Shown: positions 8,199-56,597, numbered from the stretch's first letter. The stretch: 64,000 bases of DNA from Gammaproteobacteria bacterium (GCA_965221695.1 OZ244905.1:2189384-2253383), one strand, 5' to 3'. The notes: generated by a model not told the origin, from the sequence alone. Program-made: numbers and translations.

Positions 8199-8265
8199 GC
8201 GCCGGGGACTTTCGCCAACGGCAGGCATATTGCCGACCGGCGGCCACGGTTCTGACGGCCGGGGG

Positions 8266-27133: not shown

Positions 27134-27200
27134 CCCGCATTTCCAGTTACTTTTTCCCTGAGTTTTCCAGGGAGTTTTTACCCACATGACGGAGGACATC

Positions 27201-27494
27201 ATGCAAATTAACCTTTCCGGCCATCACTTGGATATCACCCCGGCCTTGCGATCCTATGTGGCGACAAAACTGAAGCGCATAGAGCGCCATTTTGATCACG
27301 TCATTACCGTACACATAATCTTGTCGGTTGAGAAGGAACGAAAAAAGGCCGAGGCAACGATACATGTAAATCGCGGCAACCTGTTTGCCGATGCCGAACA
27401 CAATGACATGTATGCGGCCATTGACAGGTTGATTGACAAGCTCGACCGGCAGGTAAAGAAACACAAGGAAAAATTGTCCGACCACCGTAGTTGA
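27201..27494 (+). CDS. hpf: Ribosome hibernation promoting factor (sigma-54 modulation protein)
   Basis: The product reads MQINLSGHHLDITPALRSYV. GGAGG lies 7 nt upstream of ATG 27201. Confidence 0.9.
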   Translation: MQINLSGHHLDITPALRSYVATKLKRIERHFDHVITVHIILSVEKERKKAEATIHVNRGNLFADAEHNDMYAAIDRLIDKLDRQVKKHKEKLSDHRS

Positions 27495-27516
27495 TCACCT
27501 TCGTTCTGTAGCTTCA

Positions 27517-27978
27517 ATGGAAATATCAGACATTCTGACGCGCGAACACATTCTGTGTAATGCTGAACTGTCCAGCAAGAAGGCTGTGCTGGAGACCCTT
27601 GCGCTCCTGCTGGCTGACGGCGCCGGCAACCGCGCCACCGGGCAACAGGTTTTCAACTGCTTGTTATCCCGAGAACGTCTGGGCGGGACCGGTCTGGGCA
27701 ACGGTATTGCTCTACCTCATGGTCGGTTGAAGAACAACTTTTCCACGACCGCCGCATTTATCAAACTGAAGCAGGGCGTGGATTACGATGCCATTGACCG
27801 CCAGCCGGTTGACCTGGTATTTGCCCTGCTGGCGCCGGAAGACTCGACCGAGGAACATTTACAGATCCTGGCAAAACTTGCTGAGATGTTTGCCAGTCCT
27901 GAATTCTTGACGCGGTTGAGGAGGCAAAAATCTGAAGAAGCGATTTACCAACTGCTTACGGACAGCAAAGTTTGCTGA
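27517..27978 (+). CDS. ptsN: PTS IIA-like nitrogen regulatory protein PtsN (EIIA-Ntr)
   Basis: The protein contains the EIIA-Ntr His motif GIALPHG. Confidence 0.9.
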   Translation: MEISDILTREHILCNAELSSKKAVLETLALLLADGAGNRATGQQVFNCLLSRERLGGTGLGNGIALPHGRLKNNFSTTAAFIKLKQGVDYDAIDRQPVDLVFALLAPEDSTEEHLQILAKLAEMFASPEFLTRLRRQKSEEAIYQLLTDSKVC

Positions 27979-28241
27979 AAAAAAACCTCATCATTATTAA
28001 TAAGTTGGGATTGCATGCCCGCGCCGCAGCCCGGTTTGTGGAAACTGCGGCCGGGTATGAATCAGACATCAGGGTTAAATCGGGAGCGAAAACCGTCGAT
28101 GGAAAAAGTATTATGGGACTGATGATGCTGGCCGCAGCAAAAGGGGCGGAATTGGAATTGACCGTTTATGGCAAAGATGAGGAGGCGGCGCTCGGAGCGC
28201 TGGCGAGACTGATCGAAAACCGCTTCGAGGAAGAGATATGA
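27972..28241 (+). CDS. ptsO: HPr-family phosphocarrier NPr
   Basis: The product reads LIIINKLGLHARAAARF with the active-site His. A TTG start overlaps the ptsN end. No rapZ lies between ptsN and ptsO. Confidence 0.85.
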   Translation: MLKKNLIIINKLGLHARAAARFVETAAGYESDIRVKSGAKTVDGKSIMGLMMLAAAKGAELELTVYGKDEEAALGALARLIENRFEEEI

Positions 28242-40759: not shown

Positions 40760-41533
40760 ATGGGACTGGCAAAACGAATTATTCCCTGCTTGGATGTGGA
40801 CGCCGGACGCGTGGTCAAGGGGGTGAAATTCGTCGATATCAGGGATGCCGGCGATCCGCTGCAGGTGGCCCGTTGTTATGACGAACAAGGCGCCGATGAA
40901 CTCGCGTTCTTAGACATTACCGCCAGCAACGAGGGAAGGGATACGATGTTGCACGTGATGGAGGCGGTGGCCGGCCAGGTTTTCATTCCGCTTACCGTGG
41001 GTGGCGGCATACGCACCCTGGATGACATTCGCCGGCTGTTGAATGCAGGGGCGGACAAGATCAGCATCAATACCGCAGCGGTACATGACCCCGGGTTTGT
41101 GCGCGAGGCCACCCGGGAGTTCGGTTCACAATGTATCGTGGTGGCCATTGACGCAAAGCAGGCCAGCGCTGACGGCACAGCGTCAAAATGGGAGGTCTTT
41201 ACCCATGGCGGACGCCGGGGAACCGGAATAGACGCGGTTCTGTGGGCGGAACAAATGGCAGCGTGCGGCGCCGGGGAAATTTTACTCACCAGCATGGACA
41301 GGGACGGCACCAGGGACGGCTTTGACCTGCCCCTGACCTGCGCGGTCAGCGCCGCCGTCAGCATTCCTGTAATTGCTTCCGGCGGTGTGGGCAATCTGGA
41401 CCACCTGGTAGAAGGTGTTATCCAGGGGAAAGCCGATGCGGTACTGGCGGCCAGCATTTTCCATTTCGGCGAATATACAGTGGCCCAGGCAAAACAGAAG
41501 ATGGCGCAACACGGTATAGAGGTAAGAAATTAG
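40760..41533 (+). CDS. hisF: Imidazole glycerol phosphate synthase cyclase subunit
   Basis: The product reads [24 protein letters not shown]...[11 protein letters not shown]. Confidence 0.9.
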
Positions 41534-41729
41534 TCATGTCCGGCTTGAACGATCTGATTTGGTTGGAGCAGGTTAACTGGAACGCGGACGGGCTGCTTCC
41601 GGTGGTTACGCAGGACCACGCTATAGAGGTAAGGGGTTAAACATGTCCGGCTTGAACGATCTGAATTGGTTGGAGCAGGTTAACTGGAACGCGGACGGGC
41701 TGGTTCCGGTGATTACCCAGGACCACGCT
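41515..41729 (+). repeat. Tandem 108 bp duplication spanning the hisF stop / hisI start
   Basis: The two units at 41515-41622 and 41623-41729 are about 95% identical. Each begins ATAGAGGTAAG-N9-ATGTCCGGCTTGAAC. Confidence 0.85.
41536..41640 (+). pseudogene. Truncated hisI' fragment (34 codons) created by the duplication
   Basis: The translation is [29 protein letters not shown], followed by IEVRG read from the duplicated hisF tail, and then a stop. Confidence 0.6.
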
Positions 41730-42384: not shown

Positions 42385-42558
42385 TCAATAGACCCACAGG
42401 ACGTGGGAAAACAGTATCCGCAGATAACGCAGATTACAGCGCGTCTCCGCAACAATACCATTCCCGCAGATGCAGATTAGGCGCCGCTCCACAACAAAAC
42501 CACTCCCGCTTACGCGGGAATGGGACAGGGGGCCGCTCCCATGAAGACCGCCACCAAA

Positions 42559-42647
42559 ACCACTCCCGCCCCCGATCAACGCCATATTGGGGCAGGCTGA
42601 GAAGCGGGAGTCCAGTCAGATACTACGTCGCCTGAATGGCGACCCAT
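42559..42647 (+). repeat. Divergent REP-like repeat copy preceded by degenerate AACAAnACCAyTCCCGC tandem motifs
   Basis: GCGGGAGTCCAGT...CGTCGCC-TGAAT-GGCGAC parallels the 44051 and 44237 copies. Three CCAyTCCCGC motifs lie upstream at 42455-42570. Confidence 0.4.
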
Positions 42648-42712
42648 TAATTTACTGGATTCCCACTCTGTGCCATAATGATCCAAAGTAATCATTCTGC
42701 AGGAGATCAACT

Positions 42713-43229: not shown

Positions 43230-44009
43230 ATGGCGGACGACTCCCAACGTCCCGATTCTGATACGGAACAGCCTCTCATCGCACACCTCGCCGAACTGCG
43301 CAACCGGCTGTTGCGCAGCCTCGCATGTGTGTTCATCGTGTTTCTGGCTCTTAGCGTCTTTGCCGACGATATTTACTCCCTGGTGGCCGGTCCGCTACTG
43401 GCGCAATTACCGGAACAGAGCAGCATGATTGCAACCGAGGTGGCGGCGCCGTTCCTGGTGCCGTTCAAACTCGTTTTCTTTGCCGCGGTGTTCGTGTCCG
43501 TGCCGTACCTGCTGTACCAGGCCTGGGCATTCATTGCGCCGGGCCTGTACCAGAATGAACGGCGCCTGGTACTGCCGCTGATTTCCAGCAGCGTGTTGTT
43601 GTTCTACCTCGGTTGCGCGTTCGCATTCTTTATCGTGTTTCCCCTGCTGTTCGCGTTCCTGACGTCCACCGCACCGGCCGGGGTGACGGTAATGACCGAT
43701 ATCAGCCATTACCTGAATTTCATCCTGAAGATGTTCTTTGCATTCGGGGTTGCGTTTGAGGTTCCCATAGCCATTATCCTGCTCGTGTGGACGGGGCTTG
43801 CCTCTGTAGAGTCACTGGCTCGCAAACGGGCTTATATCATTGTCGGCGCCTTCACCGTCGGCATGTTGCTGACCCCGCCGGACATCATATCCCAGGTGCT
43901 GCTGGCAGTGCCGGTCTGGTTATTGTTTGAACTGGGCCTGGTACTGGGCCGATTTGTCCGCCGACAATCCGAAGATGAAGAGACAAACGAGGAACCGGCA
44001 AGCCAATGA
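43230..44009 (+). CDS. tatC: Sec-independent translocase TatC
   Basis: The product has six TM helices and the LIAHLAELRNRLL N-terminal motif. Confidence 0.9.
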   Translation: MADDSQRPDSDTEQPLIAHLAELRNRLLRSLACVFIVFLALSVFADDIYSLVAGPLLAQLPEQSSMIATEVAAPFLVPFKLVFFAAVFVSVPYLLYQAWAFIAPGLYQNERRLVLPLISSSVLLFYLGCAFAFFIVFPLLFAFLTSTAPAGVTVMTDISHYLNFILKMFFAFGVAFEVPIAIILLVWTGLASVESLARKRAYIIVGAFTVGMLLTPPDIISQVLLAVPVWLLFELGLVLGRFVRRQSEDEETNEEPASQ

Positions 44010-44050
44010 ATCGCCGCCGCCCCGCCTGCGATGCCAGAGCAGATACCATA

Positions 44051-44112
44051 CCATTCCCGTGGAAACGGGAATCCAGTTGACAGACCGTCGCCGGTGGCGA
44101 GACTAACATATG
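44051..44112 (+). repeat. REP-like two-hairpin repeat copy
   Basis: The sequence is CCATTCCCGTGGAAACGGGAATCCAGTTGACAGACCGTCGCCGGTGGCGAGACTAACATATG. Confidence 0.6.
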
Positions 44113-44236
44113 CACTTTTCAGCCTGTCCGTGTATGGTGTTGAGCGGAGCAGGAGTAGCACAGAGGTTGGGTTAATTGTTGTATTCTTCCTGGGATTGCT
44201 GGGCTTCTGCCCGCACTGCTGGAGAACATCCCATAA

Positions 44237-44298
44237 CCATTCCCGTGGAAACGGGAATCCAGTTGATAAACCGTCGCCGAAGGCGACACTAACATATG
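44237..44298 (+). repeat. REP-like two-hairpin repeat copy whose terminal ATG is the sulfatase start codon
   Basis: It is about 90% identical to the 44051 copy. The second hairpin loop (GAAG vs GGTG) and closing pair differ in a compensatory way. Confidence 0.6.
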
Positions 44299-45597
44299 TC
44301 TTTCGCGATAATTTCAAGATGCCGTAAACAGGTTGTCGCAAGCTTAATCCTGTTATGCGGCATCGCATACCCGGGCGCCGTCAGTCTTGCCGATACTGCG
44401 TCGCCAACACCGCCGAATATTGTGCTGGTTCTCGCTGATGACCTCGGTTATGGCGATGTCGGTGTGTACGGCGCCCGTCTTATCGAAACACCGCATTTGG
44501 ATGGATTGGCGGCGCAGGGCATCCGGCTTACGAATTTTTATGCCAGTGGCAATGTCTGCACGCCTTCGCGCGCCGGGCTGCTTACCGGTCGCTACGCGAT
44601 CCGAAACGGCCTGGCCGATAAAACCATTACCGTCAATGACTTCCGCGGATTACCGGCCGGTACGACGACCATAGCCGGACTGCTGCAACAGCATGGCTAT
44701 CGCACCGCATTGATCGGCAAGTGGCACCTGGGTCACCACAAGCCTTCCCAACGACCGAATGCGCTGGGCTTCGACCTCTTTTATGGCCTGTTGCACCCCA
44801 ATGATGTTGAACAACCGTTATATCGGGATACACAGGCGACGGCTGAGCCGTTCGACCAGGGCGCGTTGACGCGCCGTTTCACTGAGGAAGCGCTCCGCTT
44901 TATTGAAAACGATACGCGCCAGCCATTTTTTCTGCTTTTGTCTCACACTGCGCCGCATATTCCCCTGGTTCCTTCCGCCGCCTTCGCGAATACTTCCCGC
45001 GCCGGCGCCTATGGCGATGTGGTGCAAGAACTTGACTGGAGTGTCGGCCAATTGCTGGCAGCGTTGCAGCGCAATGGTCTCGCCGACAACACAGTTGTGA
45101 TATTTACCAGCGACAACGGCCCTTTTCCCGAAGGCAGTACCGGCGGTTTGCGCGGCGGTAAAGGCACCGCCTGGGACGGCGGTTACCGCGTCCCGTTCAT
45201 TGCGCGCTGGCCGGGGCGGATCCCTGCTGCCACCAGCGCCGGCGCGATAGCGATGAATATCGACTTGCTACCGACTTTCGCGGCGTTGGCCGGCGCGCCA
45301 TCACCACGCGCACAACTTGACGGTCGGAATATCCTCCCGGTCCTGCTGGGCAACAACGACGCATCGCCGCACCAGGCGCTGTATTTCTTCAACAATGAGC
45401 ATATCGCCGCGCTGCGCACGCAAAATTGGAGAATGGTGGTCAGGGCCGGCTACCGCGACATCCAGCGCCGCCTCCCGGAACACGAGGTTTACCTGTTATT
45501 CGACATGCGCACAGACCCGGAAGAACGCTACAGCCAGGCACAGCGCCACCCCGACAAATGGCAGGAATTACAAACCTTGCTCAAACGCGGCCCGTAG
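44296..45597 (+). CDS. Sulfatase (formylglycine-dependent arylsulfatase family)
   Basis: The product has a signal peptide, LADDLGYGDVGVYG and the C-T-P-S-R active-site motif (CTPSRAGLLTGRY). Confidence 0.85.
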   Translation: MSFAIISRCRKQVVASLILLCGIAYPGAVSLADTASPTPPNIVLVLADDLGYGDVGVYGARLIETPHLDGLAAQGIRLTNFYASGNVCTPSRAGLLTGRYAIRNGLADKTITVNDFRGLPAGTTTIAGLLQQHGYRTALIGKWHLGHHKPSQRPNALGFDLFYGLLHPNDVEQPLYRDTQATAEPFDQGALTRRFTEEALRFIENDTRQPFFLLLSHTAPHIPLVPSAAFANTSRAGAYGDVVQELDWSVGQLLAALQRNGLADNTVVIFTSDNGPFPEGSTGGLRGGKGTAWDGGYRVPFIARWPGRIPAATSAGAIAMNIDLLPTFAALAGAPSPRAQLDGRNILPVLLGNNDASPHQALYFFNNEHIAALRTQNWRMVVRAGYRDIQRRLPEHEVYLLFDMRTDPEERYSQAQRHPDKWQELQTLLKRGP

Positions 45598-45745
45598 AAA
45601 CAGAGAAACAGGGTCGGGCCTGCCTAATTGTGCCCAACTCTTTGTTTCCATTGAGTTGGTTTGTTGCAGGTGTCTGTTATGCTCCCTTAAACCCCACTTT
45701 TTGCCGCCAAAACCGAGGTTTTAAGATTCTTTTCCCTGTTTAACG
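45598..45745 (+). mobile_element. Truncated copy of the MITE-like element (left TIR plus internal part)
   Basis: CAGAGAAACAGGGTCGGGCCTGCCTAA followed by ...CTCTTTGTTTCCATTGAGTTGG...AAACCGAGGTTTTAAGATTCTTTTCCCT is about 90% identical to 48036-48180. The right TIR is missing. Confidence 0.45.
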
Positions 45746-45928
45746 GTATGACTCTATACCATCCACACGCGCCAATACGACCTGTTGGGGTCGCACGACC
45801 CTAGAGACCGACCTGGCCCGGACTTCTGGGACCAGTGGGCCCGGATAGTGTTTCAGGTAATCTGAAACAGCGCGGTCACGATGCGGCGGCCTTCCGCGGA
45901 CAGGAAGTTAAATGCCCTGCAGGCTGTG

Positions 45929-46321
45929 TTATCCAGGCAATAGAAACAGCTTGAAAGCGGTGAACAGCGAACCCGTGAACGCAGCTTGAATCAGGACAAT
46001 TTTTACCATCAGACGCAATTCCAGATTCTTGAGCCGGTGGTCCATCGATATTTCCTGCTTCTCCATCTCGTGGCGTAGCGATGTTTCCATCTTCTCCATA
46101 TCGCCCCGCAGATTCTCGATGTCACCACGAAGCGATGTTTCCATTTTCTCCATATCACCACGAAGCGTATTCTCCGTCTTAGCCAGATCAGCCTTGGTCG
46201 CTACTCGCTCATTAATCGCATCTTGCACCAGTATCACCACCGATTCCGCTTGTTTGGCCTCCATGCCGGAGTCCTTCAAGCCTTGTGCCATCTTCAGTGT
46301 ATCAAAAGCTATATCAGTCAT
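45929..46321 (-). CDS. DUF1640-like coiled-coil protein with tandem 18 aa repeats
   Basis: The N-terminus reads MTDIAFDTLKMAQGLKDSGMEAKQAESV. It has LRGDMEKMETSLRGDIEN repeats and a C-terminal hydrophobic helix. A GGAGAGG SD lies 6 nt upstream. Confidence 0.6.
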   Translation of the reverse strand: MTDIAFDTLKMAQGLKDSGMEAKQAESVVILVQDAINERVATKADLAKTENTLRGDMEKMETSLRGDIENLRGDMEKMETSLRHEMEKQEISMDHRLKNLELRLMVKIVLIQAAFTGSLFTAFKLFLLPG

Positions 46322-46679
46322 TTATTCCTCTCCCATCTCGTTGTTCATTTCACTTGGCCGGAAAACCGACCCTTGCCCCGCGGGGCATAAACCTCACGGG
46401 AGGCAGCCCGGATTATTGTTCCCTCTGCATTACTGCCGCATCCGGCGACAGTTCGGGACTGCTCTCAGGAGTTACTTTATATGGAAGTCTTCGAGGTTGT
46501 CAAATACTTACATAGCAACCGAATAGATCAGCAAATTATCGCAAAGGGAACAGTACGAGGATTATCTCATTACGGGAAGTGGTGAGTAATAATTTACCCG
46601 ATTTGGTACAAAACTCAGTGATGAATAAATTTAGTCATTTTATATTGACTATATTTATTCATTATGCCAGGCTAGTGAT

Positions 46680-48062
46680 ATGGACCCGAGATTTCTACCC
46701 CATAACACCCACCTGGAAAACCCTGCCGGGTTTACTGAACAGGACCCTCAACTGCGCCTGCTAAGCCGTCAAACATATCAATATCGTTCAGATGTGTTAG
46801 ATGATTTAGTTGTTGCAAAGCCGGGTATTTACACTCTGGGAGGAGGGCGGCAAATCGGCAAATCGACCTTGTTGAAACAGTGGATAAGTGAATTGCTGGC
46901 ACAGGGTGTCGCACCCGTATCGATCAGTTTTTTTACAGGCGAACTTATCGATGACCACCATAGCCTCCTGAGGTTGATGCAGGCTCAACTGGGCGATTCG
47001 CATACGGATTCCATCAACTACCTGATTATAGACGAAGTAACCTATATTCAGCAGTGGGATAAAGCAGTTAAATTCGCCGCAGACGCGGGCATGCTGGAGC
47101 GTACCGTCCTGGCGCTGACCGGTTCGGACCTGGGTTTAATCAGGGATGCGCGCATGCGCTTTCCCGGACGGCGCGGCGGGGCTGAGGTGGTTGATTTCCA
47201 CATGTATCCGCTTTCATTCAGGGAATGCCTGAAGCTGAAAAACCCGGACATCAATATCGATGATATCGTCTGCCGACCCGGGCAGCCTGAAGCAGACATT
47301 CTCGATACAATTTATGGGGAATTCGATCAGTACTTGATGCATGGCGGTTATTTGACAGCAATAAATGACCTGGCCGGGACCGGGCAGATAAATCAAACCA
47401 CCTTGAATACGTACTCCGACTGGATAAGAGGCGATGTGCTGAAACGCGGCAAGCACGAAAATTACCTGCGTGAAATCATGACTGCTATTATCAAACGCTA
47501 CAATTCACAGGTCACATGGAACGCCCTGGCTCGTGACCTGTCCATTGATCATCCCAAAACGGTGGCTGATTATATTGATGTGCTGGTGAATATGGACGCG
47601 GTCTTTGTACAGTCCGCCCTGCTGGAAGACAAACTGGTTGCCGCGCCCAAGAAAGCCAGAAAACTGATGTTCTGCGACCCCTTTATATTCCATGCCGTGC
47701 ACGGCTGGGTGAATCCGTCCGGTGATCCTTACCATTCGCAGATCCTGCCGCTAGTTCGTGATCCGGAATGGGCCTCCCGCCTGGTTGAGGCTGCCGTGGT
47801 CACTCATCACCGCCGTTTTTTCCCCACATATTACATCAAGGCCCGGGGTGAAGTGGATCTTGCCTATGTCAATAACGGGCAATGCTATCCTGTTGAGATT
47901 AAATGGACCAACCAGTTACGACCCAAGGACATCAAACAGGTCAACCAATATCCACGGGGTGAAATCTGGACTAAAACCAGATCCTGGGGCGACATAAACT
48001 CGACTAAAACCTATCCATTACCGCTGAAATTGCTTCAGATAAACAGGGTCGGACCTGCTTAA
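46680..48062 (+). CDS. AAA-family ATPase with DUF4143-like C-terminal domain (paralog 1)
   Basis: The product has Walker A GGGRQIGKSTLL and Walker B YLIIDEVTYI. The 3' end is encoded inside the MITE-like left TIR. Confidence 0.7.
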   Translation: MDPRFLPHNTHLENPAGFTEQDPQLRLLSRQTYQYRSDVLDDLVVAKPGIYTLGGGRQIGKSTLLKQWISELLAQGVAPVSISFFTGELIDDHHSLLRLMQAQLGDSHTDSINYLIIDEVTYIQQWDKAVKFAADAGMLERTVLALTGSDLGLIRDARMRFPGRRGGAEVVDFHMYPLSFRECLKLKNPDINIDDIVCRPGQPEADILDTIYGEFDQYLMHGGYLTAINDLAGTGQINQTTLNTYSDWIRGDVLKRGKHENYLREIMTAIIKRYNSQVTWNALARDLSIDHPKTVADYIDVLVNMDAVFVQSALLEDKLVAAPKKARKLMFCDPFIFHAVHGWVNPSGDPYHSQILPLVRDPEWASRLVEAAVVTHHRRFFPTYYIKARGEVDLAYVNNGQCYPVEIKWTNQLRPKDIKQVNQYPRGEIWTKTRSWGDINSTKTYPLPLKLLQINRVGPA

Positions 48063-48242
48063 CCCTACCTATCTCTTTGTTTCCATTGAGTTGATTTGTT
48101 GCAGGGGTCTGCTTTGCTCCCTTAAACCCCATTTTTTGTCGTCGAAACCGAGGTTTTAAGATTCTTTTCCCTATACAGCTTACTCCATTAACCCAGAGAC
48201 AATGGAAACACATAGTTAGGCAGGTCCGGCCCTATTTCTCTG
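48036..48242. mobile_element. MITE-like element with about 28 bp imperfect terminal inverted repeats
   Basis: The left end is CAGATAAACAGGGTCGGACCTGCTTAAC. The right end is GTTAGGCAGGTCCGGCCCTATTTCTCTG (24/28 complementary). Subterminal inverted repeats GTTTCCATTG/CAATGGAAAC are also present. Confidence 0.5.
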
Positions 48243-48298
48243 CATGAAAAAACGCTGTAGTCCCTCCTTAAGGAGATGAGAGTTTACGTCATAAAGAA

Positions 48299-48991
48299 CT
48301 ACGTGCCGTTGCGTTGGAACCTCCCGTGTCGGAGGTAATGGATGACCTGGGCAATTACTGCGTTGTTTCTCATAATGAAGGGGTGGGTGGCAGGTATTTG
48401 AATGTGGTCCCGCATCCCTGTCAGTTTCGTATGCTCGACGGAGACCTTGCCGTCATCAGCGCCGGGTATCAGCATGGATAATAGCAGGTTGATGCTGCGG
48501 GTGCCGGCTATTATGCCCAAGTCGAAATCGGCTGGACCAAGACGGATGGGGACGCTTGCGCTATCCGTGCCGAGTTGCAGACCCGCAGCGCCGTTGATCA
48601 GGCGGAAACCGGGGACGTTTCCCAATTTATCCACCACTTCGCTGCCCTGATTAGGCGGCGCCAGCATCACGACCCGTTGCAGGCCAGGAATGTCATTATC
48701 CTCAAGATAGTGCCGGAGCAGGATGCCGCCCATGGAATGGGTGACAAAATGAATATTCTCTCCGTCACATTTCTCCAGCGCCGGCTCAATGGCGAGACCC
48801 GCCAACTTTTCTATCGGGAATTGTCTTGAGGGATAACCCTGGTTGATGGGTGTAAAACCCTGTTCCTCAAGTTCACGCGCCAGCTTGTTCATGGAGCGCT
48901 CGGTCCTGGCCAGACCATGCAGCAGGATGACACATGAGGAAGTGGCCTCCAATGAGAACAGAACCAGCAATATGAACGTGACTGTTTTCAA
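48299..48991 (-). CDS. Secreted alpha/beta-fold hydrolase (esterase/lipase-like)
   Basis: A signal peptide is followed by a VILLHGL oxyanion region and a GHSMGG nucleophile elbow. Confidence 0.7.
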   Translation of the reverse strand: MKTVTFILLVLFSLEATSSCVILLHGLARTERSMNKLARELEEQGFTPINQGYPSRQFPIEKLAGLAIEPALEKCDGENIHFVTHSMGGILLRHYLEDNDIPGLQRVVMLAPPNQGSEVVDKLGNVPGFRLINGAAGLQLGTDSASVPIRLGPADFDLGIIAGTRSINLLLSMLIPGADDGKVSVEHTKLTGMRDHIQIPATHPFIMRNNAVIAQVIHYLRHGRFQRNGT

Positions 48992-49122
48992 AGCACAGAG
49001 CCCGACGCGTAAAAGTACATGATTATCTGGGTGAGATCATACTTTTGTTTCTGGCCCCTGTCACGTCGTTGACTTGCGTCTCACTACTTCTATATTTTAC
49101 TTTTTTACCACCTCGGTATAAA

Positions 49123-50310
49123 ATGGTAAATATGAAAATTAAACGTACTGTTTTCAAAGGGTTAAATGATCACTTAACCAGGCCGGAAGTCCTGATTCTG
49201 CTCGGCGCCAGGCAGGTTGGGAAAACCACCCTGATGAATGATCTGGCAACGACTGCAGCGGAGAAGTTTCAGCATATCCGGTTTTTCAATGCTGAGTTCC
49301 CTGATGACCTGCTGTTTTTCTCCAGGCCGGAACGGGAATTATTTTATGATCTGACGAAAACACCCGATACGATCATTTTTATCGATGAGTTTCACTATAT
49401 CAAAAACATCTCGAAAATCTTCAAGGGCATATACGACGCTCAAAAGAGAATTAAAATTGTGGCCAGCGGGTCGTCATCACTGGAAATTCATAAGCACCTC
49501 CGGGAGAGTCTGGCCGGAAGAAGGAGTATATTCAAAGTTTACCCATTATCTTGGGAGGAATGGAGGCAGACCGGCGGTTCAATTGAAGAGTTTACCGTAT
49601 TTGGCGGCATGCCCGGGCTTGTTCACCTTGCAAGCAAAACTGAGAAAATGGAATATCTCTCACAAATCGTTCAAGCATATATTCTCAATGATATCAAGGG
49701 CTTGCTCAGGGAAGAGAACATTGCGGCATTTAATCACCTGCTGTATTATCTGGCAGAAAACCAGGGACAGATCACCCCCACCGCCAATCTTGCAAGAGAG
49801 ATCAGGTTATCAAATATGACGGTGGTGAATTACCTTGATATCCTTGAACAAACCTATGTTGTGTTTGGGCTTCACAGTTTTTCCAGAAGGCTGTCCAACG
49901 AATTAAAGAAATCAAGAAAATATTATTTTTTTGATAATGGCATCAGGAATGCCATCATCAAAAATTTTGCCGCGCCCCAAGAAAGAAGCAATACTGGTTT
50001 TCTGTATGAATCCCATGTTTTCCTTGAACTTCATAAAAGATTGCGCGCCAACACAGAATTACAGTTTTGGCGCAACAGGCAAGGCGATGAGGTTGATTTC
50101 ATCTGGTCTGAAAATCAGGTTCCTGTCCCCATTGAAGTTAAACAGAGTTGGTCAGGACGAAACCTACCGCAAGGCCTGCGTAAGTTCCTGAAAAACTACC
50201 CTGAAGCCCCATGTGGAATATTGGTCAATGCGGACACAAGCGCGGAGCGGCAATTAAATGGGCGAACGATCAAATTGAAGAAATTTGATGAAGCAATCTT
50301 GTGTACATAG
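49123..50310 (+). CDS. AAA-family ATPase with DUF4143-like C-terminal domain (paralog 2, AT-richer)
   Basis: The product has Walker A GARQVGKTTLM and Walker B IIFIDEFHYI. It is colinear with paralog 1. Local GC is noticeably lower than in flanking DNA. Confidence 0.7.
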   Translation: MVNMKIKRTVFKGLNDHLTRPEVLILLGARQVGKTTLMNDLATTAAEKFQHIRFFNAEFPDDLLFFSRPERELFYDLTKTPDTIIFIDEFHYIKNISKIFKGIYDAQKRIKIVASGSSSLEIHKHLRESLAGRRSIFKVYPLSWEEWRQTGGSIEEFTVFGGMPGLVHLASKTEKMEYLSQIVQAYILNDIKGLLREENIAAFNHLLYYLAENQGQITPTANLAREIRLSNMTVVNYLDILEQTYVVFGLHSFSRRLSNELKKSRKYYFFDNGIRNAIIKNFAAPQERSNTGFLYESHVFLELHKRLRANTELQFWRNRQGDEVDFIWSENQVPVPIEVKQSWSGRNLPQGLRKFLKNYPEAPCGILVNADTSAERQLNGRTIKLKKFDEAILCT

Positions 50311-50660
50311 TTGCCTGATTTACCGGATATTTGTGCACTATGGTTGCATTTTTGCTGCCGGCTTGCCGCAGCCACAAGCTTCAGGGCCTTCAATCACAAC
50401 ACCTCCGGCAGCAGCAAGTCGCTGTCTCAACTTCGTGATAGTGATGCGTGGTAGATAAGCAATAAAGTTATGATATTACGAGGGTTTATTGTTATTAACG
50501 GCATAATTGTAACGTATACAGGGGCAGAAATGTAACTATTGGGCAGGTTCGGTTTTGCGTGTAACAATGGTGAGAACGCCGGATGCAATAGCTGGCATGC
50601 ATTATGGGGAGCGGAGTGACCGCACGCGGGCGGGGCGCCCGCACTCCCAGGATGGTCTTG

Positions 50661-51059
50661 TCAGGTCTGCTCCCAGGGCAGTTTGTGAAAGCGCCAGCCG
50701 TTCCGGTTGCTGCGGTGGCGGTTTTCGTCCAGGTCGCCTTCAAAGCCTTCGGCAATGTTTACCGTGTGCCGGTAGCCATGCTGTTCCAGCAGTTGCGCCG
50801 CGAGCATTGAACGTTTGCCGCTGCGGCAGAGGGTCAGGATGGTGGTGTTCTTGCTGCCCGCGCCCAATCGTTCGATCACCTTTTGAGCAAAGTCCGGGTC
50901 GGTAGTCCAATCGGGCGCTTCCTGCAAGGGTATGTGGACGGCCCCGACGGGGTGCCCCACGTAATCAAACTCGACCTTTGAGCGTACATCAAGCAGGATT
51001 GCGTCGGGGTTTTCCTGGAGCATCAGCCAGGCCTGTTTGGGGTCAACTTCGGCAACCAT
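50661..51059 (-). CDS. Rhodanese-domain sulfurtransferase
   Basis: The product has the active-site loop CRSGKRS. It abuts pyrF with a 1 nt gap. Confidence 0.8.
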   Translation of the reverse strand: MVAEVDPKQAWLMLQENPDAILLDVRSKVEFDYVGHPVGAVHIPLQEAPDWTTDPDFAQKVIERLGAGSKNTTILTLCRSGKRSMLAAQLLEQHGYRHTVNIAEGFEGDLDENRHRSNRNGWRFHKLPWEQT

Positions 51060-51060
51060 G

Positions 51061-51828
51061 TTATGGTCCTCCTGTTGGTACTATATCGTTTGTGGTTTGA
51101 ATGTCGGCGATGATGGATTGCGCCGCGCGCAGTGGATCAGGTGCTTGTGTAATCGGGCGGCCTACCACCAGGTAGTCTGCGCCGTCAGCAATCGCCTGGC
51201 GTGGTGTCAGTGTGCGTTTGTGATCGTGATGTCCGACCTCGGCAGGGCGGATGCCCGGGGTAACGATCAGGAAATCCCGGTCGCGAAATTCCCGGCGCAA
51301 GGCGCGCACGGACGAACCGGATGCAATCAAGCCTTCACAGCCGGCATCCAGGGCTTGCCGCGCCCGGCGCAGGACGATGTTGTCGGTGTTTGGCTTGGCG
51401 CCGTCCGGGGATAGCTCCTTCAGGTCAGCGGCGTCCATGCTGGACAGTACGGTGAGCATCAGCAGGCTGGGTTTGCTGTTCTCGCCGCGCCCGCGTTTCG
51501 CGGCCGTAACCGTGGAACTGCCGCCATGGATGGTCAGCAACTCCAGCCTGCCGTTGAATTCATTGGGCATGTTGGCCAATGCAGCTTGCACGGTGCGGTC
51601 GATATCATTGATTTTCAGGTCCAGAAAAACCTTGTTGCCGGCCTCTAGCAACGCGCTGATGAACGGCCAGCCTTCTCCAAGGAACAGTTGCCAGCCTACT
51701 TTATAGAAATTGACCGTGCTGCCGAGCTGTTCGATCAGGTTTTCAGCTTCGGCCGCACGATCGAAGTCCAAAGCGATGATCAGCCGATCAGCGGGCGCGA
51801 GCTTTGTTGGTGGAAATTCAGTTGCCAT
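51061..51828 (-). CDS. pyrF: Orotidine 5'-phosphate decarboxylase
   Basis: The product has LIIALDF, FLDLKINDI and LVTPGIRP...GADYLVVGRPITQAPDP. Confidence 0.85.
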   Translation of the reverse strand: MATEFPPTKLAPADRLIIALDFDRAAEAENLIEQLGSTVNFYKVGWQLFLGEGWPFISALLEAGNKVFLDLKINDIDRTVQAALANMPNEFNGRLELLTIHGGSSTVTAAKRGRGENSKPSLLMLTVLSSMDAADLKELSPDGAKPNTDNIVLRRARQALDAGCEGLIASGSSVRALRREFRDRDFLIVTPGIRPAEVGHHDHKRTLTPRQAIADGADYLVVGRPITQAPDPLRAAQSIIADIQTTNDIVPTGGP

Positions 51829-51942: not shown

Positions 51943-52899
51943 TTACAGAAGCCCGTCGTGTTCCAGCCGTCGGAGTACCTGCGCAGGTTGCAGCTCGGCC
52001 AGGGGGGTTGTCCTGAATACGGCCTCATCCCTGTTCAAGGATAGTACGCGCTCGCGCTGGCCGACTGCGTGGTTGCGGCGCCAATCAGTGGGGCCGAATA
52101 AGCCGTAGACCGGGATGGGGCCGCAGGCGAGCAGGTGCATGGGACCTGAATCATTGGTAACGGCAATCCTGGCCTGGCCGGCCAGCGCGACCAGTTGCAG
52201 AAATGAAAACGCCGCATTGGCATTCACGCCGGTGATACGGGCCAGGTCAGCATTTGTATGCCGGTCTTGCTCACCGCCTGCCCAGACCGTGACATAGCCT
52301 TGTTGCGCCAGGGACAGGGCCAATTCCCCGAAGTAAGGCCAGCGTTTTTCCTGGCGCCGGGCGCTGGCGCCCGCATGCATGATGACGAGTTTTCGGTCCG
52401 GCAGGTCCCGCTCCTGCAACCATTCGCTGACTTTGTGCTGGTCCGCTGCGGAAGGGCGCAGGCAGGGAACGACGCCGTCGGTGGAAATCCCGGCGGCCTC
52501 CAATATTTCCAGCATCCTGTCATGGATATGGCGCTGCCCGGTATAGCGATCTTGCGGGTGCAGGTTATAGGGAAAGCGCGGGTGGTTGCCGGCCTGCTCC
52601 GGGATTCCCGAGAGGCCGCACAGCGCGCCGGTACGGTCGTTGGACTGCAAGTCGTACACCCGCAGAAAACCTTGTTTTCGCACCCACAGGGCGGTTGCCA
52701 GGGTGGAACGCAAGCTGCTGCGGTCAAACGTCTTCAACTCCAGGTTGGGCCAGGTCTCAAACAATTTGATATAAGAAGGACTGGTGAGAAGAACGCAGCG
52801 GCGCGGTGCGTGGTGTTGTAAAATCCGATCAATCAGACCGGTGGCCATGACCACATCGCCCAATGCCCCGAGCTTGATGATCAGTATATCCTTACGCAT
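51943..52899 (-). CDS. Glycosyltransferase family 9 (LPS heptosyltransferase family)
   Basis: The N-terminus reads MRKDILIIKLGALGDVVMATGLIDRI. A C-terminal GT-B domain carries NDSGPMHLLA. Confidence 0.75.
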   Translation of the reverse strand: MRKDILIIKLGALGDVVMATGLIDRILQHHAPRRCVLLTSPSYIKLFETWPNLELKTFDRSSLRSTLATALWVRKQGFLRVYDLQSNDRTGALCGLSGIPEQAGNHPRFPYNLHPQDRYTGQRHIHDRMLEILEAAGISTDGVVPCLRPSAADQHKVSEWLQERDLPDRKLVIMHAGASARRQEKRWPYFGELALSLAQQGYVTVWAGGEQDRHTNADLARITGVNANAAFSFLQLVALAGQARIAVTNDSGPMHLLACGPIPVYGLFGPTDWRRNHAVGQRERVLSLNRDEAVFRTTPLAELQPAQVLRRLEHDGLL

Positions 52900-52984
52900 C
52901 GGCCAGGGGATTGTGATATTCCTCTAGAAACACTGGCAGGCTAGCGGAAAACAGGGCTTTGTACAGGCCGCTGAAACGAGTGTT

Positions 52985-53330
52985 TAACTGGCGCGCCTGT
53001 TCGTACAAGGTGAGGGTCGGGTTCAGCATTCGTTCCAGGGTAAAGCTGCAAAACGTGGCGATAGGTGGCCGGATGTTCAGGTTGTTGAAAGAAGTGTTCA
53101 TCCGGCGAGCCAGTGCATACAAGGCCAAGGTCTGGTCCAGCATTTGTCTCAAGGTAAAGCTGCGATTCGATGCGATAGGCGGTTGCGCGTACAGGTTGCT
53201 GAAAGGAGCCATCATCCGGCGTGCGCCTGTTCGTACAAAGCCAGGGTCTGGTCCAGCATTCGTTCCAGGGTAAAGCTGCGGTTCGGCGCGATAGTTGGCC
53301 TGGCGTTCAGAAAGTCCTGAACCTTTTCCG
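52985..53330 (-). repeat. Three tandem copies (about 115 bp period) of the 3'-terminal module of the GT4 gene
   Basis: The anchor TTCCAGGGTAAAGCTGC recurs at 53033, 53147 and 53263. The overlapping 107 aa ORF at 52892-53215 translates as degenerate copies of the GT4 C-terminal peptide (...NRSFTLERMLDQTLALYEQ). Confidence 0.8.
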
Positions 53331-54321
53331 CGATGGCAGCCCTGTTACCCGGTTCCACCAGGCCGTCAGGCTGCAGTTCTTCCAGCACTTCGCGGGCGCC
53401 CCCGTGGGCGTAGGCGACTACCGGACGCCCCAGCGAGAGCGCTTCCAGCGCAGTCCTGCCGAAGGCTTCGGGGATGTTTGCCAGCGACATGACGACATCG
53501 GAGATACTCAGCAGTTCGCGCAGGTCGTGACGCTGACCCAGGAAGCTGATGTCGTTTCCCAGACCGTGCCGGTTAACCATCCGGGTTAACTCCTTGAGGA
53601 ACCTTTCACGGCGCGGTTCCGCGCCGCCCGCAACCAGGCCGTGGACATGGGTTCCGGCCTGATTCAGACGCCCGATGATATCGATAAAATCCAGGTGGCC
53701 TTTCCAGCGGGTGATGCGGCCGGGCAGGGTAACCAGTGTCTTGCCCTGCAGTTGCGGCTGGTCAGCGCGCCAGCGCGCCAGCCACGTCGCGGAAGGTCGG
53801 TAGCCCTCGGGGAAAGAATCGGGATCCACGCCACGGTGAATGATCGATATCTTACCGGGATCTACGCGGGGGTAATTTGCGATGATGTAGTCATGGATAA
53901 ACTTCGAAATGGCTATCACCTTCTGTCCTCGGGTCATGACAGCGCTGTAATGGCCGACGCGGTAGGGGCCGTGTACCGTGGTGATGAACACGGGCCGTCT
54001 GGCCTCGGGCATGTTTTTCCAGGCAAGGTAACAGACCCAGGCCGGCAGGCGCGAGCGCGCATGCAAGATATCCACCTTTTCTTCCAGCAGGAAACGTCGC
54101 AGGCGAAATGCCAGCAGCAGTGTGAATGGGGACTTTTTGCCGACAGGCCAGGTATAGTGCCGGGAACCGCCGGCGGTGAGTTCAGCCGTCAGTGACCCAC
54201 CGGCGGACATGACCAGTGAACGATGGCCGCGGCGCGCCAGTTCAGCGGCCACATCAAGAGTCCCGCGTTCCACCCCGCCCGTTTCCAGGGCCGGCAGCGT
54301 TTGCAGTACGGTCAAGGACAT
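53212..54321 (-). CDS. Glycosyltransferase family 4 (LPS core / WaaG-like)
   Basis: The N-terminus reads MSLTVLQTLPALETGGVERGTLDVAAEL. A GT-B C-terminal domain follows (E-x7-E region). The ORF-track start at 54378 adds 19 aa. Confidence 0.8.
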   Translation of the reverse strand: MSLTVLQTLPALETGGVERGTLDVAAELARRGHRSLVMSAGGSLTAELTAGGSRHYTWPVGKKSPFTLLLAFRLRRFLLEEKVDILHARSRLPAWVCYLAWKNMPEARRPVFITTVHGPYRVGHYSAVMTRGQKVIAISKFIHDYIIANYPRVDPGKISIIHRGVDPDSFPEGYRPSATWLARWRADQPQLQGKTLVTLPGRITRWKGHLDFIDIIGRLNQAGTHVHGLVAGGAEPRRERFLKELTRMVNRHGLGNDISFLGQRHDLRELLSISDVVMSLANIPEAFGRTALEALSLGRPVVAYAHGGAREVLEELQPDGLVEPGNRAAIAEKVQDFLNARPTIAPNRSFTLERMLDQTLALYEQAHAG

Positions 54322-55277
54322 GTTGCGATACCGGCTGTTTGCGCCAGCAATCCTTTCTCCAGCAGCAGGTCGGCGCAACGATCGGCTTCAGCGAGTGTCC
54401 GCGGTGAAACAGGCAGCTCTGCCACAACATCGTTGCCGCCGTGGGCGCCGACGAAGCCGTCCTTGAGCAATTGGTCGACTGCGCGATGCAGGCGGCTTGC
54501 GGACTTTCTTTGCAGCGGCAGCAGGCCTACGCGACAGCTGGAAGAGAGCGCCTCGCAAATCATCGAAACACTGTCTTCGGTTACCCATACATCGCGGGCG
54601 CGAGCCAGCGCCTGCGCCAGCCAGTCACGCCCACAGTCGTCCCAGAACACGACGTCCACGCGGTCATTTTTAAGTCCGGCAAGATCATGCGCGAGTTGCA
54701 CGGGGGTACGCGGAGAATTGGCCACGGTCCAGTTACGGGGCGACGGGCGCGCCAGCAATTGCCTGATGCGCGCCAGCAACGCGTCAGGGTCCATGCGGTA
54801 ATGCCGGGAAGGTCCGCCAATCAGTATCAGGCCCTGTTCCGCATCGTGGTTGTGCGTTGGCTGTATGGGGTTAAGTGCGCCTGCCGTTACGATGACATTA
54901 TCTCTCGCCGGCGGGTCGTCATGGGCCGGGACCAGGCAGTAATCGAACCAGCCCAGCGGTAGGCTGGGACGCATGAGCACGACGGTCCTGGCCCGGTGTG
55001 CCCGGCGCACAGCGAGCAAGGCGGCATGAGTTGCGTGGCCGGCGCCGATCGCCACCAGCGGCGCCGGCAGAGCGCCTGTCCAAGGCGTTTTTCCGCTGAC
55101 GCAGGATGCCAGGGAGCGGCTCAACGGTGGCGCCGTTACCTGGTATGTTATCAGCGGTACGCGCCGGCGCAGGGCATCAATTAACCCGGTCGACTGGCTC
55201 AGGTGGCCGCGTTTACCGTCACAGATCTGCCAGAGGATGACAGGGTCGCATGAGACTTGACGGGATGTGAGGTTCAA
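54312..55277 (-). CDS. ELM1/GtrOC1-like family protein (DUF1022), putative LPS-associated glycosyltransferase
   Basis: The product has ...ILWQICDGKRGHLSQSTGLIDAL... and lies within a glycosyltransferase cluster. Confidence 0.55.
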   Translation of the reverse strand: MNLTSRQVSCDPVILWQICDGKRGHLSQSTGLIDALRRRVPLITYQVTAPPLSRSLASCVSGKTPWTGALPAPLVAIGAGHATHAALLAVRRAHRARTVVLMRPSLPLGWFDYCLVPAHDDPPARDNVIVTAGALNPIQPTHNHDAEQGLILIGGPSRHYRMDPDALLARIRQLLARPSPRNWTVANSPRTPVQLAHDLAGLKNDRVDVVFWDDCGRDWLAQALARARDVWVTEDSVSMICEALSSSCRVGLLPLQRKSASRLHRAVDQLLKDGFVGAHGGNDVVAELPVSPRTLAEADRCADLLLEKGLLAQTAGIATCP

Positions 55278-56428: not shown

Positions 56429-56597
56429 CTTGTGTTTCCTTTAACATTTGGACATTATGATAATTTAACCTGTCATTCTATCATCAAACTGCAGAAACCG
56501 CGCATCCGGGCGCCAGCCCGCCAATCTGACGCGGGCGAGACGCCCGCGCTCCCAGGAAAAACGGTGAAACACAAAGTATGCTCATGCCCTGGACAGG

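Follow-up and report, generated by a model that had tools for sequence, protein, structure and literature searches.

The region at 45598-50660 of a 64,000-nt stretch of DNA from a Gammaproteobacteria bacterium (GCA_965221695.1 OZ244905.1:2189384-2253383; hereafter the window, with positions counted from its first nucleotide) carries, between a sulfatase gene and rhodanese-pyrF, a DUF1640 gene, two AAA_14-DUF4143 ATPase genes (ATPase 1 and ATPase 2) and an alpha/beta hydrolase gene. An initial annotation made from the sequence alone had seen in this an accessory islet carrying a novel combination of genes. We find that the islet is real, but the reading as a novel combination or system is not supported, and the ATPases are ordinary members of a known and very common family. 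With a probability of roughly three in four, the region is instead the local content of a lineage-specific variable hotspot, a mosaic of units that were separately acquired and exchanged. This hotspot would sit between the hisIE-tatABC block and the rhodanese-pyrF-glycosyltransferase block of a sponge-associated gammaproteobacterium, and its units would be a sulfatase in place of an ancestral amidohydrolase, a multi-copy DUF1640 cassette (promoter, leader and gene), a 1.44-kb ATPase 1 cassette (palindrome and open reading frame, ORF), an element bounded by terminal inverted repeats (TIRs) with an interior of 207 bp or 5.1 kb in co-occurring strains, an ordinary alpha/beta hydrolase and a low-GC ATPase 2. 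Exchange would most likely occur via recombination in the flanking core genes and at repeats. Each ATPase appears to be separate and self-sufficient, and the four genes probably do not form one system.

A strain-variable site between core genes

The comparison with related genomes carries this reading. A pyrF-based scan, with one genome taken per species, yielded 14 related loci, all from metagenome-assembled genomes (MAGs) named "Gammaproteobacteria bacterium," whose name prefixes (APA_bin and SB06xx_bin, for example) denote symbionts of the sponges Aplysina aerophoba and Ircinia ramosa. The order glycosyltransferase-heptosyltransferase-pyrF is kept in 14/14 loci, and rhodanese directly adjoins pyrF in 12 of the 14, being displaced by a ~4-kb insertion in L013 and not detected in L012 (L numbers designate individual loci). 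On the opposite side, hisI-hisE-tatABC is found in eight relatives, that is, seven at species level and the sister strain L001/L031. In L003, L004, and L014, the tatC-rhodanese gap measures 1.3 kb and its sole content is a high-GC Amidohydro_2 gene beside tatC; in five further relatives it extends to 2.4-4.4 kb, and the added DNA is low in GC. The cargo includes a BglII-family endonuclease and an N6_N4 methylase in the gap of L007, with sequence-similar ORFs or remnants in L011 and L006/L002; a UPF0175 antitoxin-type gene, also in L007, to which an ORF paired with a PIN/DUF3368 gene in L017 is closely similar; an Xre-RES pair, an Eco57I-like methylase, and a PLD-family nuclease in L008; a UvrD-like helicase and a 2OG-Fe(II) oxygenase protein in L009; a type III methylase and endonuclease in L012; and a type II methylase and an MBL-fold protein in L013. 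Where tatC no longer adjoins (e.g., L008 and L012), cargo was read beyond rhodanese or pyrF. The site is a strain-variable hotspot between core genes, often with defense and addiction genes in relatives, and the "defense or mobile islet" flavor first given to the region fits it, since relatives carry restriction-modification (RM) and toxin-antitoxin genes there.

The genes of the window at this site are shared with its closest kin only. For every relative, nucleotide homology extends exactly to the rhodanese stop codon (window position 50661) and no further, and relatives below 90% identity have no sulfatase, DUF1640, ATPase 1, ATPase 2, or hydrolase gene at the site. The 13 more distant relatives (75-84% pyrF identity) have different cargo and none of these genes, so that an accessory islet does interrupt conserved synteny, as had been proposed; the same genes in the same place are common only to near-identical strains (L001/L031 and L022).

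The left boundary lies further out than the initial annotation had placed it when it took the sulfatase as a conserved flank and asked whether this gene is directly followed by rhodanese-pyrF elsewhere. This was the wrong null, since the order in relatives is tatC, amidohydrolase, rhodanese. The sulfatase (44296-45597, + strand; PF00884, E=1e-70), which is of the Cys type with a CTPSR motif, was not found in the gaps of relatives, and the window is without an amidohydrolase altogether, having the sulfatase in the same position and orientation as the ~400-aa Amidohydro_2 gene of relatives. In the left breakpoint zone (44236-44317, + strand), a copy of a 63-nt repeat resembling repetitive extragenic palindromes (REP-like) and shared start codons are followed by divergence. 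The REP-like repeat, the ATG, and the first seven codons of the sulfatase ORF align with the amidohydrolase start of L006/L002 (MSFAIIS in the window, MSSAIIS in L006), with 14/17 nt identical past the repeat, and the alignment holds through ...ATATGTC.T.CGC.ATAATTTC and diverges after. This moderate evidence suggests that the sulfatase replaced the amidohydrolase, with a left breakpoint near 44318; the variable segment, sulfatase included, would then span about 44318-50660, or ~6.3 kb.

Defense and variable hotspots between core genes have been described for Escherichia coli and Pseudomonas pan-genomes. The present site is like them in its fixed core flanks, variable cargo, lower GC, and the RM and toxin-antitoxin genes of relatives, but it differs by the absence of an integrase, tRNA, or prophage remnant, by metabolic or symbiosis-type cargo (sulfatase, FGE-domain protein, hydrolase) among defense-type genes, and by its lineage, an uncultured sponge symbiont. 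Among the islet genes, Pfam detected neither an integrase nor a transposase domain, and a tRNA/tmRNA search of the 64-kb window found none.

Several small repeats lie near the two boundaries. An 18-nt inverted repeat that would bracket the islet (44013-44030 and 50625-50642) was rejected as weak, its right arm being a hairpin that recurs at 56531. This GC-rich hairpin, GCGGGCG-GGG-CGCCCGC, is located at 50626-50642, just downstream of rhodanese, and again at 56531-56547 (two matches versus 0.12 expected by chance). On the left, the REP-like repeat, with an internal hairpin CCCGTGGAAACGGG, occurs at 44050-44112 and 44236-44298 between the sulfatase and tatC (43230-44009, + strand; from the ORF listing, and homologous to TatC-annotated genes, PF00902, in L022/L031). 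The same REP-like element occupies the equivalent place in L002 and L006, and the second copy in the window supplies the sulfatase start codon (ATG at 44296).

Gene content and base composition

The ORF listing, with support from Pfam, confirms the four genes where they had first been placed: a DUF1640/CCDC90-like gene at 45929-46321 (- strand; PF07798, E=1e-10, 42.2 bits versus a gathering cut-off of 33.5), ATPase 1 at 46680-48062 (+ strand, 460 aa; AAA_14 1e-19, DUF4143 6e-11), the alpha/beta hydrolase at 48299-48991 (- strand; weak Pfam matches only), and ATPase 2 at 49123-50310 (+ strand, 395 aa; DUF4143 2e-34, AAA_14 3e-28). Rhodanese (50661-51059, - strand) and pyrF (51061-51828, - strand), both identified by Pfam, follow. 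The two stretches described as non-coding, 46322-46679 and 50311-50660, indeed contain no convincing ORF, Rfam match, or tRNA. The latter, 350 nt that abut the rhodanese stop codon and form the right end of the islet, is 99.4% identical in L001 and absent from other relatives; a candidate coding remnant within it was discarded, being merely a ~40-codon open stretch without an identifiable relative. A 189-nt spacer at 45738-45926, with no ORF and no Rfam match, matches the near-identical strains L022 and L031 only, and an Rfam scan of 43.0-53.5 kb at E<=0.1 gave no match.

As for base composition, the GC content of the window is 0.571 (1-kb windows: mean 0.571, standard deviation 0.041) and that of 45598-50660 is 0.484. 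The drop reported around 49.0-50.6 kb is real, with a value of 0.43 at 49-50 kb that is the window minimum (0.428, the lowest 1-kb GC in 64 kb, at 49 kb, more than three standard deviations under the mean). By gene, GC is 0.589 in the sulfatase, 0.505 in ATPase 1, 0.548 in the hydrolase, and 0.434 in ATPase 2, which is the lowest-GC gene in the window and, as had been stated, the more AT-rich of the two ATPase genes. Because the native rpoN-ptsN region (26500-28000; lptB-rpoN-ptsN-ptsP) also falls to 0.49-0.50, the GC of DUF1640 and ATPase 1 (0.49-0.50) is not diagnostic alone. It is clearly deviant only in ATPase 2 and the spacers, and it is native-like in the sulfatase and hydrolase. The low GC at 26.5-28 kb had itself raised the suspicion of a second islet, which was rejected since this is the lptB-rpoN-ptsN-ptsP housekeeping region. 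One might thus suppose that there is no islet at all, only native genes with locally lower GC, in keeping with the 0.49 reached by rpoN-ptsN and the native-like hydrolase and sulfatase. Synteny refutes this, however, the 13 distant relatives having different cargo and none of the genes, and we regard the supposition as exceedingly improbable.

The two ATPases as members of COG1373/PDC-S01

Profile searches leave little that is novel about the ATPases themselves. Against Pfam gathering cut-offs of 27 bits for AAA_14 and 28.1 bits for DUF4143, ATPase 1 scores 71.1 and 42.8 bits and ATPase 2 scores 98.8 and 119.1 bits, respectively. ATPase 2 matches the PADLOC PDC-S01 hidden Markov model (HMM) PDLC04789 over nearly its full length (E=1.5e-89), and ATPase 1 matches PDLC04787 (E=1.4e-28, residues 33-305) and PDLC04789 (E=4.8e-23, residues 50-426). 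On these matches, both ATPases are members of COG1373 (AAA_14 plus DUF4143) and of the PADLOC candidate PDC-S01. In the HMM check that the initial annotation had called for, no HMM places them in a housekeeping family; its statement that no described system matches is true for the combination of genes but not for the ATPases, each of which alone matches PDC-S01. NCBIfam and PHROGs offer no useful name for the ATPases or the hydrolase, and a PDB sequence search returned nothing for either ATPase. The two ATPases do belong to the same family, as their description as paralogs implied, but they are only 24% identical and are therefore distant members of it, not the products of a recent duplication.

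The family has a history in the literature and in sequence records. DUF4143/COG1373 was assigned to the PD-(D/E)XK superfamily in 2012, with its function given as "unknown" (PMC3424549), and PDC-S01, an ATPase fused to PD-(D/E)XK, has been reported as the fourth most common defense call across prokaryotes (PMC12988326). COG1373/PDC-S01 is frequent on plasmids (534/72,556 records) and rare in phage records (21/50,697).

Structural modeling agrees with this assignment. The AlphaFold (AF2) model of ATPase 2, with a predicted local distance difference test (pLDDT) score of 91.4 and a predicted template modeling (pTM) score of 0.90, has as best Foldseek matches in the PDB Orc1/Cdc6, STAND proteins (NRC3, Apaf-1, RPP1, Avs5, and MalT), RuvB, RFC, DnaA, and MuB, with template modeling (TM) scores of 0.3-0.44, and there are weak Pfam nSTAND matches as well. 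When modeled alone, the last 113 residues (pLDDT 90.7) match McrC (best), Bax1, Can2, R.BspD6I, DdmD, and Hjc (E from 1e-4, TM 0.5-0.6), all of which are PD-(D/E)XK nucleases. Walker A, Walker B, and E-x-D...E-x-K do not vary within either subfamily, and both window proteins have them. ATPase 1, which has 1,852 homologs at E<=1e-10, all of 450-470 aa and ranging from 83-93% identical orthologs in related symbionts to ~60% relatives across phyla, has the invariant residues G55-K61-T63, D118, R164/R165, E391, D393, E406, and K408. In ATPase 2, D88, E89, E323, D325, and K340 are invariant and E338 nearly so. Both ATPases comprise a predicted Orc1/STAND-like AAA+ domain, a helical region, and a predicted PD-(D/E)XK nuclease domain with its catalytic residues intact; by analogy to Orc1/Cdc6, the helical region may be a winged helix-turn-helix (wHTH).

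From these domains one can propose how such a protein would work. The helical/wHTH region would bind DNA, the Orc1/STAND-like AAA+ module would couple ATP binding to assembly or switching, gating the nuclease, and the C-terminal PD-(D/E)XK domain would cut nucleic acid. Each ATPase would then be a one-gene ATP-dependent nuclease against foreign or specific DNA. The benefit may go to the host (defense) or to the gene (selfish retention or spread).

Comparison with described systems supports an ordinary membership. The two ATPases are like PDC-S01 in their HMM matches, two-domain architecture, length (395 and 460 aa), and intact Walker and PD-(D/E)XK residues, and structurally there is no difference. 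They differ in genomic setting: they are not embedded in an RM, BREX, or DISARM locus (no RM type I, BREX, or DISARM genes are present in the 44-51 kb around them), two divergent members lie 1 kb apart, and the 3' end of ATPase 1 has been rewritten by the TIR element. Such embedding, however, is how PDC-S01 was discovered, not a requirement for membership. With McrBC, in which McrB is the AAA+ motor and McrC the PD-(D/E)XK nuclease, they share an NTP-driven AAA+ module with a PD-(D/E)XK nuclease, McrC being the best C-terminal match, but they are single fused polypeptides whose AAA+ module resembles Orc1/Cdc6 and STAND rather than McrB, and there is no sequence similarity. Finally, the order of AAA+ domain, helical lid, and a region aligning with the Orc1/Cdc6 winged helix recalls Orc1/Cdc6 and STAND proteins (Apaf-1, NLRs, Avs, MalT). 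With TM scores of only 0.3-0.44, no sensor repeats, and a C-terminal nuclease effector, this likeness does not establish membership.

The ATPase 1 cassette and its palindrome

ATPase 1 is part of a sharply bounded 1.44-kb cassette that extends from a palindrome to the stop codon. The palindrome (46621-46662), 42 bp long with 17-nt arms that are 94% complementary and an 8-nt spacer, forms the 5' edge of the cassette, of which 46621-48039 recurs in L018-L021. Homology among the copies begins exactly at the palindrome and runs to a point just short of the stop codon. The palindrome hardly varies among L001, L018, L019, and L020, and the upstream flanks are unrelated. In L018, L019, and L020, the ATPase 1 orthologs (83-87% aa identity) are solitary among metabolic genes, located between Ribonuc_L-PSP genes and CO-dehydrogenase subunits in L018 and L019 and between a flavin monooxygenase and an acyl-CoA ligase in L020, where McrBC and HipA are a few kilobases off. 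No DUF1640, hydrolase, or second COG1373 gene is found near these three orthologs. The palindrome is a candidate autoregulatory operator or recognition site of ATPase 1.

The recurrence of this cassette bears on another explanation, namely that AAA_14-DUF4143 genes are primarily selfish mobile cassettes in which a nuclease-ATPase recognizes, for example, the 42-bp palindrome for its own spread or retention. The same 1.44-kb unit is present in at least three unrelated contexts, unaccompanied by any further mobility gene; plasmids often carry the family (534 records) and phages seldom do (21); the PDC-S01 that was tested is not among the candidates reported protective; and MuB is among the fold matches. 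Yet neither a target-site duplication nor a second palindrome at the 3' end was seen at the ATPase 1 cassette, the palindrome may be a simple operator or promoter element, ATPase 2 is without a palindrome of this kind, and the embedding of the family in RM, BREX, and DISARM loci suits defense equally (bioRxiv 10.1101/2024.01.29.577857). We consider this explanation rather unlikely. Its narrower form, in which the ATPase 1 unit would be an autonomous one-gene mobile cassette whose own nuclease-ATPase recognizes the palindrome or a related site and drives insertion or retention, is in our judgment clearly unlikely; if it were true, COG1373/PDC-S01 would be largely selfish nuclease elements, though among the commonest "defense" calls in prokaryotes.

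ATPase 2 and the hydrolase

ATPase 2 is also found by itself elsewhere. Its 395-aa start is backed by an identical database protein (P0241), and a promoter-like TTGACT-16-TATATT with 10/12 consensus matches is located upstream at 49069-49096 (+ strand). ATPase 2-type homologs number about 5,000. The nearest non-self relatives are 73-66% identical, and the homologs examined (L027 and L028) are solitary, beside Fic, ankyrin, NADAR, or unidentified genes, with no hydrolase as a neighbor. The hydrolase, in which the GxSxG motif reads HSMGG and the hydrophobic N terminus could be a signal peptide, is 45-55% identical to "alpha/beta hydrolase" genes on Photobacterium, Paracoccus, and Rhizobium chromids, and appears to be an ordinary member of the alpha/beta-hydrolase family. 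A PDB sequence search with it gave only matches with E>0.04.

The DUF1640 cassette

Another independent unit of the mosaic, the DUF1640 cassette (45927-46505, - strand), consists of the gene and 184 nt upstream and is defined by its recurrence in L023/L024. Upstream of the gene are a ~145-nt leader and a promoter-like TTGACA-18-TAAAGT at 46503-46474, found by a promoter scan, and the Shine-Dalgarno sequence GGAGAGG precedes the ATG, as had been claimed. The homology of this unit stops at 46505 and that of the ATPase 1 unit begins at 46620/46621, with an AT-rich junction (46506-46620) between the two cassettes.

The internal repeats described for this gene exist, but their period is not 54 nt: it is 33 nt (11 aa, LRGDMEKMETS), and together with a 21-nt variant sums to 54 nt. 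Tandem Repeats Finder does not call these repeats. The protein, as read from the sequence, has 11-residue repeats and a hydrophobic tail MVKIVLIQAAFTGSLFTAFKLFLLPG, and is a putative tail-anchored coiled-coil protein. It is like the DUF1640/CCDC90 family, which comprises eukaryotic MCUR1 and CCDC90B and small membrane-anchored coiled coils of bacteria, in its Pfam match above the gathering score and in its putative N-terminal helical head, coiled coil, and C-terminal hydrophobic anchor. It differs in the variable number of LRGDMEKMETS copies, in being multi-copy per genome, and in its conserved promoter and leader.

The cassette recurs widely in accessory DNA. A 580-645-nt DUF1640 unit is present twice in L023/L024, with 83-84% nucleotide identity over its full length and 88-93% in longer sub-segments. 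There, at 6001-9577, two direct cassettes flank a three-gene cluster that includes a HipA_2-domain protein and adjoins a methyltransferase-HNH protein and an SNase-like nuclease. L029 has four paralogs within 5 kb, interspersed with PIN_3, AAA_25, and other genes, and other lineages have two to four within a few kilobases of accessory DNA. These cassettes may mark or mediate the exchange of accessory DNA. The paralogs in L023-L026, L029, and L030 have neither of the two ATPases nearby. Paralogs in these sponge-associated genomes are 101-153 aa long with one to six copies of LRGDMEKMETS, which has an RGD tripeptide inside (P0121-P0140 and P0169). The repeat also occurs in Gemmatimonadetes-annotated matches (P0169) and family matches also include some annotated as Spirochaetaceae MAGs, which suggests that the family may be shared across phyla.

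Among paralogs, the promoter and leader (46322-46505, - strand) are more conserved than the coding sequence, and the leader is nearly invariant (compared with L023 5817-6000 and 9047-9229, L025 4834-5000, and the sequence upstream of each gene in L029/L030). Paralogs of a high-GC lineage have a different, equally conserved leader of ~120 nt. The leader has a fold z-score of -1.7, no Rfam match, and no match in a JGI metagenome scan for its motif (0 matches). RNAalifold, run on two sets of five leaders, found one compensatory pair in each and a positive (unfavorable) covariation term, so that the aligned leaders lend a possible conserved structure weak covariation support. A DUF1640 copy in L026 (4871-5001) has a ~40-nt palindromic insertion in the leader and a split ORF (88 + 84 aa), and is probably decaying.

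The TIR element and a second allele in the same sample

The 3' end of ATPase 1 runs into a further unit, a non-coding TIR element of 207 nt (48036-48242) with 28-nt TIRs that are 86% complementary. A 137-nt copy of its left half (45601-45737, + strand; 88% identical to 48036-48172, blastn E=5e-45) starts 3 nt past the sulfatase stop codon and is also found in L031 and L022. The islet had been described as bounded by miniature inverted-repeat transposable elements (MITEs). The TIR element and the repeat copies are real, but they bracket DUF1640 and ATPase 1 only, that is, the left 2.6 kb, and not the hydrolase or ATPase 2, and "MITE" describes how the element looks without placing it in an established family. 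The element is like MITEs in its 207-nt length, imperfect 28-nt TIRs, lack of coding capacity, and position at gene ends. It is unlike them in having no target-site duplication (the flanks ...TTGCTT/CAGA and CTCTG/CATGAAAA share none) and no transposase partner, in its number, only 1.7 copies being known, all at this locus, and in that the corresponding ends in the sister strain enclose 5.1 kb of non-transposase cargo. The TIR end was found nowhere else in 542 kb of related DNA, in JGI metagenomes (0 matches), or in IMG/VR (0 matches).

As first noted, the last eight codons of ATPase 1 come from this repeat: the ORF enters the element by 27 nt, which encode QINRVGPA and the stop codon. The orthologs end ...LLQTVGNNEAHG instead, and nucleotide homology to them stops at 48039. 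The conserved PLPLxLL motif lies upstream of that point, and the element rewrote only the non-conserved C-terminal tail. The native 3' end of ATPase 1 was not found beyond the TIR element.

The two direct copies could be taken as the limits of a composite, transposon-like unit (45601-48242) with which DUF1640 and ATPase 1 arrived jointly. The direct 137-nt repeats flank exactly these two genes, and over 32 nt the outer ends (45601-45632 and 48211-48242) show 84% complementarity. Such a unit is nevertheless quite improbable: besides the absence of a target-site duplication and of the TIR elsewhere, neither this segment nor its 5.1-kb version has a transposase, the two copies match at only 88%, and within the segment homology breaks off at separate boundaries for the DUF1640 unit and the ATPase 1 unit.

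That 5.1-kb version comes from strains that co-occur with the one in the window. L001/L031, the major strain (97% identical, 28x coverage, 640-kb contig), and L022 (98% identical to the window, 2.7x) are from the same ENA sample. L031 is collinear with window 36.4-52.9 kb save for two differences, one REP copy fewer near tatC and 5,090 bp, with the same TIR-type ends, in place of window 48067-48302 (236 bp). This insert (L031 11388-16477, L001 13544-18647; GC 0.37-0.50) has at its start the same 31-nt inverted end, fused to ATPase 1, and at its close an inverted left-type end beside the hydrolase. Its ORFs comprise one for an FGE-sulfatase-domain protein (3.7e-58) and five for small proteins that lack Pfam matches, several of them with hydrophobic N termini, and a Pfam scan of these ORFs revealed no transposase. 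With 5.1 kb in one allele (L031) and 236 bp in the other (L022) between the same ends, the inverted ends therefore delimit a slot with strain-dependent content. A further suggestion, weaker than that of an autonomous ATPase 1 cassette, is that cargo might be swapped without any transposase in a slot marked by the TIR ends at 48036-48242. The FGE-sulfatase-domain protein is possibly relevant to the Cys-type sulfatase 3 kb away.

Separate units or one system

Taken to its conclusion, the initial annotation would make the four genes, or the ATPase pair and the coiled-coil protein, one new multi-gene defense system. The genes are adjacent, they are in a hotspot with defense genes in relatives, and they occur together in both alleles. 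However, no sampled homolog of ATPase 1, ATPase 2, or DUF1640 neighbors the other genes, and in the window the genes have separate promoters, mixed orientations, and differing GC, with sharp and independent homology boundaries between the units, while the hydrolase belongs to a general enzyme family. We therefore regard a multi-gene system as very improbable, and the proposed functional combination falls with it, since homologs of ATPase 1, ATPase 2, and DUF1640 occur apart in relatives.

Several points weigh against the reading of the region as a mosaic of independent units. Recombination as the route of exchange is something that we infer. DUF1640 and ATPase 1 are together in both alleles, leaving room for a local functional link, and the two PDC-S01 genes, 1 kb apart, might cooperate. 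The homologue contexts sampled away from the locus amount to 8/12 (three for ATPase 1, two for ATPase 2, and five for DUF1640), and a rare conserved pairing could escape such a sample. As for ATPases acting as one-gene nucleases, PDCs are defined by their embedding in RM, BREX, or DISARM loci, which makes PDC-S01 a "guilt-by-embedding" candidate (bioRxiv 10.1101/2024.01.29.577857), and in an E. coli trial of eight candidates against phages T4, T5, and T7, the one PDC-S01 included was not among the four reported protective.

Other repeats in the window

Outside the islet, three tandem units of ~114 nt are present at 52960-53303, the second and third sharing 72% and 65% identity with the first. 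What is repeated is the 3' end of the glycosyltransferase gene located at 53212-54378 (- strand), and the peptide ...RSFTLERMLDQTLALYEQA recurs in an ORF at 52892-53215. In BLAST, L031 5116-5228 aligns to both window 41510-41622 and 41617-41729. Because this segment aligns twice, and off-diagonal L022 matches are seen too, the window allele would have a tandem duplication of ~107 nt at the hisF/hisI junction. Between hisE and tatA (42504-42667), two adjacent segments of ~66 nt are 80-82% like two overlapping segments of L031 20166-20290, which lies between pyrF and the heptosyltransferase; this appears to be another small dispersed repeat.

Implications for annotation and for the family

For annotation, the region is best read as a hotspot of independent cassettes, and each ATPase labeled as a COG1373/PDC-S01 candidate nuclease-ATPase, not as part of a new system. 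The locus provides a natural contrast for integrase-free cargo exchange in uncultured symbionts, one that rests on two alleles in one sponge sample and on the same cassette in three contexts. For the family, the sharply bounded unit made of a palindrome and a gene offers a concrete handle on PDC-S01 function.

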